A stretch of DNA of 5,447 nt. Source: a virus (Duplodnaviria > Heunggongvirae > Uroviricota > Caudoviricetes). Below, in pieces: positions 432 through 5,447 of this stretch; positions within the stretch are counted from its first letter, which is position 1, and each line of letters starts with the position of its first letter. The notes under the pieces are model-generated. The model saw only the letters and a program-made list of their open reading frames with translations. It did not search any database and was not told where the DNA came from. The DNA is taken from IMG/VR virus record IMGVR_UViG_3300029517_000088; one strand, written 5' to 3'. The position numbers and the translations under genes are program-made.

Positions 432-459
432 AGAATACCCATAGGTAAACAAAAGTCAA
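432..459 (-). promoter_or_regulatory. Candidate sigma70 promoter for ydaS: -35 TTGACT (complement of 454-459), 16-bp spacer, -10 TATTCT (complement of 432-437)
   Basis: Read directly from the minus strand. The -35 is a 5/6 match and the -10 a 4/6 match to consensus. The predicted start is about 19 nt upstream of the ydaS ATG. Operator copy O1 overlaps the -10 and spacer. Confidence 0.45.
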
Positions 460-471
460 TACCCACAGGTT
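436..471. promoter_or_regulatory. Operator pair O1 (436-447 TACCCATAGGTA) and O2 (460-471 TACCCACAGGTT), OR-like cluster in the ydaS-racR divergent intergenic region
   Basis: Two copies of a 12-bp near-palindrome spaced 24 bp start to start. The same motif recurs at 502-513, 969-980 and 994-1005. Confidence 0.6.
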
Positions 472-472
472 G

Positions 473-500
473 TTTACCTTGCAGTAATCGCATCTATTAT
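473..500 (+). promoter_or_regulatory. Candidate racR promoter: -35 TTTACC (473-478), 16-bp spacer, -10 TATTAT (495-500); predicted start at or next to the racR ATG (leaderless)
   Basis: The -10 is a 5/6 match ending 6 nt before the ATG at 507. No Shine-Dalgarno is present upstream of the ATG, and no alternative in-frame start exists back to the stop at 417-422. Confidence 0.4.
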
Positions 501-501
501 T

Positions 502-513
502 TACCTATGGACA
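502..513. promoter_or_regulatory. Third, degenerate operator copy O3 (TACCTATGGACA) overlapping the racR start codon
   Basis: Matches the first 9 positions of the motif and spans the ATG at 507-509. Position is consistent with autoregulation. Confidence 0.35.
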
Positions 514-926
514 AATATGAATTTAGACGACAGCAACTCATCAAAATTCGTGATGAGAAATGCGATGGTAAAGCGGTTAACGTGGCCAGAAAGATCGGGC
601 GCGAGCCTTCTTATGTATCAAGAATGTTGTACCCAGAGGGGAAAAAGGGAAAAAAACGGATCGCTGATGATATGGTGGAGATTATCGAAGAGTCCTTTGG
701 GTTACCCCGGGGATGGATGGATGGTATCGTTTCATCATCAACGAACACAGCCTCCAGTTATGAAACAAGGGTTCTAACGCCACGACAACGTATTTTTTTA
801 GATCTCTTAGACGAACTGCCAGAAAGTGAAGCGGATAACTTATTAAAAACTCTTGAAGAGAAAAAACAGTATTACAATATGATCTACGAAGAAATCCGTA
901 AAAAGAAAGCACAAAACGCATCATAG
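507..926 (+). CDS. racR: Prophage repressor, RacR/DicA-like HTH protein (139 aa), no C-terminal peptidase domain
   Basis: 139-codon ORF divergent from ydaS. N-terminal HTH-like segment (AVNVARKIGREPSYVSRM). C-terminal segment (LTPRQRIFLDLLDELPESEADNLL) resembles the DicA C-terminus as I remember it. Position relative to ydaG, ydaF and sieB matches racR of Rac. My recollection of K-12 RacR is 158 aa, so the start or length may differ. Confidence 0.7.
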   Translation: MDKYEFRRQQLIKIRDEKCDGKAVNVARKIGREPSYVSRMLYPEGKKGKKRIADDMVEIIEESFGLPRGWMDGIVSSSTNTASSYETRVLTPRQRIFLDLLDELPESEADNLLKTLEEKKQYYNMIYEEIRKKKAQNAS

Positions 927-968
927 CTCACCAAACAACTAGTCACCAGTTAAGACACCGTAAAAAGT

Positions 969-1005
969 TACCCATGGGTATTTACTTTTTAAATACCTAT
1001 GGGTA
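969..1005. promoter_or_regulatory. Operator pair O4 (969-980 TACCCATGGGTA, perfect palindrome) and O5 (994-1005 TACCTATGGGTA), OL-like cluster immediately downstream of racR
   Basis: Two copies spaced 25 bp. Candidate weak promoter elements overlap them: -35 TTTACT (981-986), 17-bp spacer, -10 TATCCT (1004-1009); alternatively -35 TTACCC (968-973) with -10 TAAATA (990-995). Orientation would drive the + strand early genes. Confidence 0.5.
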
Positions 1006-1180
1006 TCCTTCTTTTCATACCAACCCACCCCGCCCCACAGAATGCAGGGCAATACTTCGAGTTACCAGGCAGTGGTCAGGGGTTAAGTAGCCAGCCCGAG
1101 GCGTAAGAACATGACGGCGGGATTCAAATTTTGCAGTGCAGCAGTTAGTTCCGCCACCCGGCGTTAAGGGGAGAGATAAG

Positions 1181-1315
1181 ATGGTGCATTACGAAGTAGT
1201 TCAGTATTTGATGGATTGTTGCGGTATCACTTACAACCAGGCTGTGCAGGCTTTACGCAGCAACGACTGGGATCTCTGGCAGGCAGAAGTCGCTATACGT
1301 AGCAACAAGATGTGA
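1181..1315 (+). CDS. ydaG: Small prophage protein (44 aa), function unknown
   Basis: ATG at 1181 preceded by a strong Shine-Dalgarno (AAGGGGAGAG, 1166-1175). The 44-codon length and the position two genes from sieB match ydaG of Rac. Below the size cut-off of the supplied ORF track. Confidence 0.65.
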   Translation: MVHYEVVQYLMDCCGITYNQAVQALRSNDWDLWQAEVAIRSNKM

Positions 1316-3250: not shown

Positions 3251-5278
3251 ATGAGCACAAAACCACTCTTCCTGTTACGGAAAGCGAAAAAATCATCCGG
3301 TGAACCTGACGTCGTCCTGTGGGCAAGCAACGATTTTGAATCGACCTGTGCCACTCTGGACTACCTGATCGTTAAGTCAGGTAAAAAACTGAGCAGCTAT
3401 TTTAAAGCTGTTGCCACGAATTTTCCTGTCGTTAATGACCTGCCCGCTGAAGGTGAGATCGATTTTACCTGGAGTGAACGCTATCAACTCAGCAAAGACT
3501 CCATGACATGGGAACTAAAACCGGGAGCAGCACCAGACAACGCTCACTATCAAGGCAATACCAACGTCAACGGCGAAGACATGACTGAGATTGAGGAGAA
3601 TATGCTACTCCCAATTTCTGGCCAGGAACTGCCCATTCGTTGGCTTGCTCAACACGGCAGCGAAAAACCGGTAACGCACGTTTCACGCGACGGACTCCAG
3701 GCATTACACATTGCTCGGGCTGAAGAACTACCGGCTGTTACTGCCCTGGCTGTTTCCCACAAAACCAGCCTGCTCGACCCGCTGGAAATTCGCGAACTCC
3801 ACAAACTGGTTCGTGACACTGACAAAGTTTTCCCTAATCCTGGTAATTCAAACCTGGGACTGATAACTGCTTTTTTCGAAGCATACCTGAACGCTGACTA
3901 CACCGATCGAGGACTGCTGACAAAAGAGTGGATGAAGGGTAATCGTGTTTCACACATCACTCGCACGGCTTCCGGTGCTAATGCTGGCGGCGGAAACCTC
4001 ACCGATCGCGGCGAAGGTTTCGTACACGATCTGACGTCACTGGCGCGCGACGTAGCCACTGGCGTACTGGCCCGTTCAATGGATCTGGACATCTATAACC
4101 TTCATCCGGCACACGCTAAACGCATTGAGGAAATTATCGCTGAAAATAAACCGCCCTTTTCTGTTTTCCGCGACAAATTCATCACCATGCCTGGCGGGCT
4201 GGATTATTCCCGCGCCATCGTGGTTGCGTCCGTAAAAGAAGCACCAATTGGGATCGAGGTCATCCCCGCGCACGTCACTGAATATCTGAACAAAGTACTG
4301 ACTGAAACCGATCATGCCAACCCTGATCCGGAAATCGTGGATATTGCCTGCGGTCGCTCCTCTGCCCCGATGCCGCAGCGAGTAACAGAAGAAGGAAAAC
4401 AGGATGATGAAGAAAAACCGCAACCATCTGGAACAACGGCAGTTGAACAGGGAGAGGCTGAAACAATGGAACCGGATGCAACTGAACATCATCAGGACAC
4501 GCAGCCGCTGGATGCTCAGTCACAGGTAAATTCTGTTGATGCGAAATATCAGGAACTGCGGGCAGAACTCCATGAAGCCAGGAAAAACATTCCATCAAAA
4601 AATCCTGTCGATGCCGATAAATTGCTTGCTGCATCACGTGGTGAATTTGTTGACGGAATTAGCGACCCGAACGATCCGAAATGGGTAAAGGGGATCCAGA
4701 CTCGCGATTGTGTGTACCAGAACCAGCCAGAAACGGAAAAAACCAGCCCGGATATGAATCAACCTGAGCCAGTAGTGCAACAGGAACCGGAAATAGCCTG
4801 CAATGCCTGCGGCCAGACTGGCGGGGATAACTGCCCTGACTGTGGTGCGGTGATCCGAACAGTAACACTACTGCAGCCTGCTCTTGAAGCACTGAAGGAG
4901 CAATACAAACTGACCGGGCATCATCGCAAAAGCGAAATCACCTTTTATCATCGGGAGTACGGCAGAACCGAAAAGCAAAAACTGCATTTTGTTTTCATGC
5001 CCAGGGTGTGTAACGGAAAACAAAAACCTTATTACTCGGTAAGCAGTTTGGGGGCAAGGTGGAATGCAGCAGTAAAACGTGCTGGTATTCGCCGCCGTAA
5101 TCCGTACCATACGCGGCATACTTTTGCCTGCTGGCTGTTGACGGCAGGAGCGAACCCGGCATTTATAGCCAGCCAAATGGGGCATGAAACTGCGCAGATG
5201 GTGTATGAAATTTACGGTATGTGGATTGATGACATGAACGACGAACAGATAGCCATGTTGAATGCGCGGTTATCGTAG
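3251..5278 (+). CDS. recE: Chimeric ORF (675 aa): RecE (exonuclease VIII) N-terminal region, about residues 1-534, fused in frame to the C-terminal about 141 residues of a Rac-type tyrosine integrase
   Basis: From [29 protein letters not shown]... to ...[21 protein letters not shown] the protein matches the RecE N-terminus as I remember it. After about nt 4852 it continues with an integrase C-terminus carrying the HxxR box ([10 protein letters not shown]) and the catalytic-tyrosine region (MVYEIYG). GAGG lies 10 nt upstream of the ATG. Confidence 0.8.
4853..5278 (+). pseudogene. intR: 3' remnant of the prophage integrase gene (C-terminal catalytic fragment only)
   Basis: Only the distal part of the catalytic domain is present; the upstream Arg/Lys catalytic residues and the N-terminal DNA-binding domains are missing. 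Position directly upstream of ttcA matches intR of Rac. The junction coordinate is approximate. Confidence 0.65.
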
Positions 5279-5329: not shown

Positions 5330-5447
5330 ATGCAAGAAAATCAACAAATTACAAAGAAAGAACAATACAACCTGAACAAATTACAAAAACGTCTGCGTCG
5401 TAACGTGGGCGAAGCCATTGCTGACTTCAATATGATTGAAGAAGGCG
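5330..5447 (+). CDS. ttcA: tRNA 2-thiocytidine biosynthesis protein TtcA, 5' end (39 codons, continues beyond the window)
   Basis: [39 protein letters not shown] matches the TtcA N-terminus. ttcA is the host gene flanking the integrase end of Rac. Confidence 0.85.

Follow-up and report, generated by a model that had tools for sequence, protein, structure and literature searches.

Here we have analysed a 5,447-base stretch of viral DNA (IMG/VR record IMGVR_UViG_3300029517_000088, Caudoviricetes), referred to below as the window, in which a 12-base-pair (bp) palindrome recurs on both sides of a phage repressor gene. The window is a Rac-like prophage remnant adjoining ttcA; in the carrier strain L725 its genes follow in the order YdaT-family gene, cro-like gene, 'hypothetical protein' (the repressor gene), ydaG-like gene, ydaF, sieB (on the opposite strand), kilR, ydaE, racC and recE. 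By our reading, to which we assign a probability of roughly 85% on the strength of sequence comparison, the palindromes are operators of the cI-like repressor encoded between them (507-926) and are arranged as the right operator (OR) and left operator (OL) of phage lambda. The features on which this reading draws are collected in Table 1.

Palindromes on both sides of the repressor gene

Five copies of the palindrome, beginning at 436, 460, 502, 969 and 994, were read directly from the sequence, as the preliminary description had reported. A scan with the consensus TACCYAYRGGTA at up to two mismatches returned these five places only (436, 969 and 994 exact, 460 with one mismatch and 502 with two), amounting to 10 strand matches against 1.08 expected. 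A sixth site, at 475-486, lies one mismatch away from the half-site pattern TACC-N4-GGTA. When scored with a weight matrix trained on related loci only, with the window excluded, these six sites are the top matches of the window and all fall inside the two clusters (20.4 bits for 969, 19.7 for 436, 19.4 for 994, 10.9 for 460, 8.7 for 475 and 7.9 for 502), the next best match reaching 4.7 bits. It is scarcely credible that the sites are chance occurrences or leftover repeats without function. The matrix scores of 475 and 502 do lie in a range in which about 0.7 chance matches are expected per window; however, none of 200 shuffles reached the observed count of 10, the positions are conserved across bacterial orders (see below), and 100 kb of unrelated chromosome from L725 contained neither a match at one mismatch or fewer nor a paired site. 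Indeed, the counts already exclude chance for the four or five main sites, and the objection, raised in advance by the preliminary description, that the motif might be equally frequent elsewhere in the genome finds no support in the carrier sequence sampled (these 100 kb and the prophage).

The upstream cluster lies in the divergent region between the cro-like gene and the repressor gene, where, in agreement with what had been proposed, it overlaps two outward-facing promoter-like sites found by consensus scan. Counted from the repressor ATG, the window sites fall at -71, -47 and -32, like those of the relatives described below, and the canonical third OR site is therefore 475-486, which had not been listed originally; the copies at 436 and 460 stand, and that at 502-513 is doubtful. 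Its right half coincides with the conserved coding start ATGGAYAAA. Whether it serves as a weak extra site over the start codon is uncertain; a weak site in that position, O3 of RacR, has been reported in Escherichia coli K-12 (PMC9638921). The spacing of 24-25 bp attributed to copies within each cluster holds from 436 to 460 (24 bp) and from 969 to 994 (25 bp), and fails from 460 to 502, which are 42 bp apart.

On the leftward side, an element gTCAATACC is conserved across relatives and supplies, on the minus strand, the -35 sequence TTGAC of the putative right promoter (PR). On the rightward side, the -10 hexamer of the putative repressor-maintenance promoter (PRM) ends six bases before the ATG at 507 and no Shine-Dalgarno sequence is found there, so the repressor mRNA is probably leaderless, with its start at or next to that ATG; relatives keep this layout (TTTACC ... 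TAGAAT, six nucleotides, ATG). Relative to the predicted leaderless start, the centre of OR2 lies at about -41.5.

Table 1. Features around the repressor gene, with positions numbered from the first base of the window (aa, amino acids; nt, nucleotides; ORF, open reading frame; PL, left promoter).
Feature	Position	Strand	Details
Cro-like gene, 93 aa	125-406	-	73% identity to mEp043 gp51 'transcriptional repressor'
PR-like promoter, cro-like gene	432-459	-	TTGACT, 16-nt spacer, TATTCT; consensus scan 9/12
OR1, predicted strong operator	436-447		TACCCATAGGTA; -71 from repressor ATG; in PR spacer and -10 region
OR2, predicted medium operator	460-471		TACCCACAGGTT; -47 from repressor ATG; abuts -35 hexamers of PR and PRM
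PRM-like promoter, repressor	473-500	+	TTTACC, 16-nt spacer, TATTAT; consensus scan 9/12
OR3, predicted weak operator	475-486		TACCTTGCAGTA; -32 from repressor ATG; overlaps PRM -35 hexamer and spacer
Possible fourth weak site, status uncertain	502-513		TACCTATGGACA; over repressor start codon
Repressor gene, 139 aa	507-926	+	ORF; WP_000362155.1; annotated 'hypothetical protein'
OL1, predicted strong operator	969-980		TACCCATGGGTA; immediately upstream of PL -35 hexamer
RNA hairpin, candidate intrinsic terminator	969-1015	+	OL1:OL2 pairing including A/T flanks, 16 bp, 5-nt loop, tail TCCTTCTTTT
PL-like promoter, early left operon	981-1009	+	TTTACT, 17-nt spacer, TATCCT; predicted start ~1016
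OL2, predicted strong operator	994-1005		TACCTATGGGTA; overlaps PL spacer and -10 hexamer
Predicted PL leader and first gene	1016-1315	+	ydaG 1181-1315; ydaG-ydaF-kilR-ydaE-racC-recE operon

The repressor and its relatives

The preliminary description had taken the repressor gene for racR of the K-12 Rac prophage; BLASTP against K-12 RacR (158 aa) returned E = 2.3, that is, no detectable similarity. Because Pfam gave no match for the protein and a sequence search of solved structures yielded nothing useful, its identity had to be sought through structure prediction and fold search. PHROG 5736, annotated 'transcriptional regulator', matches it with E = 4e-70. An AlphaFold2 model (predicted local distance difference test score, pLDDT, of 84) places helices at residues 3-63, a disordered linker at 77-87 and a C-terminal helical hairpin at 92-138, and the top solved match in Foldseek is the Rep protein of a Salmonella temperate phage (5D50, a repressor-antirepressor complex; E = 6e-4), followed by XRE-type helix-turn-helix domains. 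On this model, the N-terminal domain qualifies as a helix-turn-helix DNA-binding domain.

In a translated search of phage genomes, residues 1-86 share 65% identity with cI of the lambdoid phage mEp043 and with a protein of phage CharmingMan, and residues 21-139 share 39.5% identity with the 139-aa CI of phage Tritos. From residue 87 to residue 139, the protein pairs in the alignment with the short helical domain of Tritos type rather than with the GDSM-containing domain that mEp043 cI has. By these alignments the repressor is a chimera of an mEp043-type N-terminal half and a Tritos-type C-terminal half (~87-139). The S24 peptidase domain (PF00717) is absent from it by both Pfam and alignment; database relatives of 221-242 aa carry PF00717, and a LexA/S24-like domain is present in most relatives. 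Several other database relatives (P0012, P0015, P0017, P0018 and P0005) begin at the ATG of window position 517, in another frame, and rejoin or leave the repressor frame near A-runs at 641-660; such copies could be frameshifted and presumably inactive in some strains, or could reflect sequencing slips.

We compared the operators across 25 loci, comprising 23 loci with repressor relatives (one genome per species), mEp043 and the window itself. The 23 come from hosts including Yersinia, Arsenophonus, Edwardsiella, Klebsiella, Brenneria, Leclercia, Aeromonas, Paraburkholderia, Herbaspirillum, Alcaligenes and Stenotrophomonas, and span Enterobacterales, Aeromonas, Burkholderiales, Xanthomonadales and an alphaproteobacterium. 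TACC-N4-GGTA recurs at fixed offsets from the repressor ATG. The first site (-72/-73) is found in 23 of the 25 loci, the second (-47/-48) in 15 and the third (-32/-33) in 20; in relatives the second site also ends in GGTT or GGTC, as does OR2. Furthermore, 20 of the 25 loci have a downstream pair 25-26 bp apart, interleaved with -35 and -10 hexamers. Stray sites numbered only 23 in 131 kb. In mEp043 (NC_019706), for example, TACCTGTAGGTA, TACCCATAGGTT and TACCGGCAGGTA lie between cro and cI at -72, -47 and -32, and TACCTATAGGTA and a further TACCTGTAGGTA, 25 bp apart, lie over the annotated putative PL; CharmingMan has the same arrangement. In our search of the literature on operator sequences and on mEp043, we found no functional work on a TACC-N4-GGTA operator.

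Across these loci, the palindrome travels with the DNA-binding domain of the repressor, as expected of its operator. Tritos offers a specificity-swap control: its CI shares the C-terminal domain of the window repressor and differs in its DNA-binding domain, and the window motif is absent from Tritos. The motif therefore follows the DNA-binding domain and not the tail, and Tritos was rejected as a carrier of the motif. Tritos has a palindrome of its own, of the type ATGTACT...AGTACAT, with three copies near the cro and CI starts and two downstream of CI, 24 bp apart (3857-3928 and 4414-4457 of its locus, L005). By the 65% identity of the repressor half, the 73% identity of the cro-like protein and the conserved operator offsets, the window is predicted to be of the mEp043-type immunity specificity. 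mEp043 itself differs in several respects: its cI has 228 aa and ends in a domain of LexA/S24 type, cI and OL are separated by an extra gene and a separate intrinsic terminator, and an N antiterminator is found downstream.

Which protein of the window would read the palindromes also has to be considered, since the cro-like protein shows the same co-variation with the motif as the repressor N-terminal domain, retains a close counterpart in mEp043, and belongs to a class of proteins that share the operators of the repressor in lambda and CP-933P (PMC8630535). It matches PHROG 35 (E = 1e-22), gives a weak YdaS_toxin match under the curated cut-off, and resembles K-12 YdaS only weakly (54% identity over 28 residues). 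Even so, recognition mainly by this protein or by the YdaT-like protein, in place of the 139-aa repressor, seems improbable: the motif tracks the repressor N-terminal domain across Proteobacteria, and YdaT-type proteins have a different target, TTGATT-N6-AATCAA (PMC9986795), which occurs separately at 131-148. As shared operators are the norm, binding by the cro-like protein would complement recognition by the repressor more than compete with it.

The sequence at 131-148, TTGATTTTCATGAATCAA, is a perfect copy of this YdaT recognition sequence of CP-933P (PMC9986795) and is one base off the 'YdaT-box' of K-12 (PMC11879457); it is the single match in the window, against 0.05 expected. It lies where the cro-like and ydaT-like genes meet, and the ydaT start codon falls inside its spacer.

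We give next to no weight to the possibility that the sites are bound by a K-12-type RacR, so that knowledge of RacR would apply directly. The chromosomal locus and the flanking Rac genes are indeed the same, but the repressors share no similarity, the immunity cassette has been swapped, and K-12 homology resumes only at 1016. The published RacR operator, (T/A)TAGGC-N3-GCCTA(T/A), as derived from footprints (PMC9638921; PMC5700373), has no match in the window at up to two mismatches, and conversely the window palindrome was not found in the 25-kb K-12 Rac region. With the BLASTP result and these reciprocal motif scans both negative, RacR identity was rejected, and at the level of sequence we regard binding by RacR as refuted. 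Because repressor, operator and cro-like gene all differ, RacR data are not directly transferable, and the use originally made of them survives as analogy only, K-12 having an operator pair of its own in the corresponding place.

The K-12 Rac prophage nevertheless shares with the window its chromosomal site, its flanking early genes, the layout of operator clusters with a 25-bp pair around a promoter upstream of a shared leader, and a YdaT-box at the ydaS-ydaT junction (PMC11879457); it differs in its unrelated repressor and its operator, TAGGC-N3-GCCTA (PMC9638921). We find five RacR-type operators in K-12 Rac at one mismatch or fewer, three intergenic and two downstream, and none elsewhere in the 25 kb. 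In the RacR literature that we found, operators are described only in the racR-ydaS intergenic region. The two downstream sites, TAGGCTATGCCTA and TAGGTAATGCCTA, lie 25 bp apart at about 1419626-1419667 of MG1655 (8627-8668 of the extracted locus, L002), just downstream of racR, where they are interleaved with TTGACA-17-TATAGT and face ydaG-kilR-recE.

The downstream pair as putative promoter and hairpin

The second cluster sits, as had been proposed, just downstream of the repressor gene, on the same strand as ydaG-ydaF-kilR-ydaE-racC-recE in the L725 annotation. Several comparisons support the PL-like promoter placed here. The module at 969-1010 is an approximately 84% identical inverted copy of the PR module at 431-471; furthermore, its -35/-10 pair recurs in relatives at the same place relative to the two OL sites, and in the same alignment columns K-12 has TTGACA-17-TATAGT (11/12) with two RacR-type operators interleaved. 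Near-identity with K-12 resumes at window position 1016, coinciding with the predicted PL start. The predicted leader there opens with a C-rich, G-poor tract, CATACCAACCCACCCCGCCCCACAG (1016-1045), that is conserved with K-12; given the Rho silencing of kil in Rac (PMC4150792), this tract could be a Rho-loading site.

The same pair of palindromes can form a hairpin in RNA. A terminator scan flags 969-1015; the stem is perfect with only 5 G-C pairs of 16, and it arises automatically from two similar palindromes. The fold of 920-1030 has an energy of -24.1 kcal/mol (z = -4.45). Relatives have less stable hairpins (-6 to -19 kcal/mol), often at a large distance from the repressor gene. None in the family is stronger than that of the window, which follows the stop codon at 926 by 42 bp and is the sole terminator-like element ahead of PL. 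We considered the hairpin as a mere by-product of the palindromes, which holds for most relatives; since the family comparison leaves that of the window unusually strong, termination is kept as a secondary hypothesis.

Tentatively, then, 969-1015 might double as OL/PL DNA and as an RNA terminator for repressor transcripts, although we consider this less likely than not. Only transcripts arriving from the repressor gene would contain the hairpin, as PL transcripts are predicted to start downstream of it. Such a terminator would insulate the repressor gene, which is transcribed constitutively, from the toxic kilR operon at a distance of 42 bp, and would stand in for the Rho-dependent terminator of K-12 Rac. 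That terminator lies within racR, and the silence of kil in K-12 depends on it (PMC4150792); some insulation of kil is therefore to be expected in the window.

A more radical proposal would make the pair at 969-1005 mainly an intrinsic, possibly bidirectional, terminator of the repressor gene, its likeness to OR being nothing but palindrome pairing. The flagged 16-bp stem with its tail TCCTTCTTTT, the calculated stability, the position as sole terminator-like element between the stop at 926 and PL, and the Rho precedent in K-12 (PMC4150792) all speak for it. What the pair of relatives keeps, however, is the TACC/GGTA half-sites and the interleaved -35/-10 hexamers, not the inter-site complementarity or the T tail; that pair often lies 0.4-1.8 kb beyond the repressor stop codon, and in mEp043 a separate canonical terminator precedes the pair. 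On this comparison the proposal has only a slim chance of being correct. It is likelier that the pair was an operator first and that termination was added in the compact version found here; the two roles are not mutually exclusive.

A probable lambda-like switch in an exchangeable cassette

From the layout, the homologies and the comparative conservation set out above, we infer how such a switch would work. In the lysogen, both early operons, and with them the toxic kilR, would be kept silent by repressor dimers occupying OR1/OR2 and OL1/OL2. OR1 and OR2 would cover the cro-side promoter PR, whose silencing would shut the cro-like/YdaT/replication arm. OL1 and OL2, 25 bp apart, would bracket the -35 hexamer of PL and overlap its -10 hexamer; PL is predicted to drive ydaG-ydaF-kilR-ydaE-racC-recE, and its silencing would shut the ydaG-kilR-recE arm. 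With OR2 about 41.5 bp upstream of the leaderless start, the position from which lambda OR2 activates PRM, the bound repressor may stimulate its own gene, and OR3, over the PRM -35 hexamer, may confer negative autoregulation. The 24-25 bp spacing together with the helical C-terminal domain is suggestive of cooperative binding, and OR and OL might be joined by looping over ~510-530 bp. The RecA-cleavable domain that mEp043-type relatives have is missing from the repressor; induction, if any, probably proceeds through another route such as an antirepressor. By analogy, expression data from K-12 fit such control by RacR: its depletion raises ydaG, ydaF, kilR, ydaE and racC 40- to 70-fold (PMC6765115; bioRxiv 10.64898/2026.09.06.749655), and for the recombination genes zygotic induction is part of classical genetics (overview in PMC5917428).

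With three corrections, namely that the repressor is not RacR, that the site positions fixed in related loci make 475-486 OR3 and leave 502-513 doubtful, and that K-12 Rac and Tritos have different palindromes of their own in this layout, the original likening of the region to lambda OR/OL holds. In common with lambda, the window has divergent repressor and cro genes, a three-part operator with predicted strength in the order OR1 > OR2 > OR3, a spacing of ~24-25 bp, OR2 near -42 of a leaderless repressor transcript, and a second cluster over an outward early promoter that lies downstream of the repressor on the same strand and serves kil and recombination genes. There are also clear differences. 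The operators have no sequence similarity, and the core of the window sites is 12-14 bp against 17 bp in lambda; OL has two sites in the window against three, OR2 and OR3 are only 15 bp apart, and OL follows the repressor gene after 42 bp, with no rex-like genes between. The window has neither a RecA-cleavable S24 domain in its repressor nor an N/nut antitermination module, and a YdaT-type protein serves as the cII analogue.

An experimental parallel is PaaR2/YdaS/YdaT of CP-933P, likewise a Rac-like cryptic prophage with a non-LexA-type repressor and a leaderless repressor transcript (PMC8630535). There, PL933P with OL1-3 has been shown experimentally to be repressed ~100-fold by PaaR2 and YdaS, and the divergent promoters are repressed too (PMC8630535). 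CP-933P differs in having another repressor, a half-site consensus GTTTAGTAA in 18-bp palindromes, and a toxin-antitoxin pair co-transcribed with the repressor (PMC8630535).

Four immunity types thus have different palindromes in the same layout: the window with mEp043, K-12 Rac, Tritos, and CP-933P, the last from published work (PMC8630535). Since RacR similarity and RacR operators are absent from the window and near-identity with K-12 begins only at 1016, the whole cassette, from the cro-like gene through the operators and the repressor to the downstream operators, has been exchanged relative to K-12. The comparison indicates that Rac-like prophages swap the cro-OR-repressor-OL/PL cassette as one unit, with its left boundary at the predicted PL start.

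Several observations weigh against a working switch of this design. The PL hexamers (TTTACT/TATCCT) are weak and went unreported by the consensus scan because their score of 8/12 falls below its threshold of 9. OR2 and OR3 are degenerate, none of the 24 related loci has a site at the position of 502-513, and some database copies of the repressor are frameshifted. Finally, the prophage is a remnant whose right arm, in L725, is lost after the replication genes, and the window itself has a recE-intR deletion, so the switch circuit could be partly decayed.

The latter deletion is visible as a 675-aa ORF at 3251-5278, in which the N-terminal ~535 residues of RecE run in frame into the C-terminal part of the Rac integrase. 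The deletion has therefore removed the end of recE, recT, ralR, rcbA, xisR and the start of intR. The match to recE and that to intR have ~26 bases in common at their junction (~4846-4871), ttcA follows at 5330, and the junction was found in none of the 5,426 complete E. coli genomes searched. Of the genomes that match the window at 99.8-99.9% identity, most do so from position 75 only, leaving 1-74 aside, which places a mosaic joint in the ydaT-like gene at the left edge of the window. A search of the window with Rfam found no RNA family.

The window thus presents an ordinary lambdoid design in an uncharacterised immunity type, which combines an mEp043-type DNA-binding domain with a Tritos-type short tail. 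Of 5,426 complete E. coli genomes, 822 (15%) carry this immunity region, which lies directly upstream of kilR and recE, and results obtained with K-12 RacR should not be transferred to strains that carry it. The operator TACC-YRYR-GGTA, the positions of its sites and the likely promoters provide a ready design for binding and reporter tests. Current understanding is not overturned; rather, the lambda model is extended to another immunity type, and we predict that a prophage of this kind would exclude mEp043-type phages by immunity.

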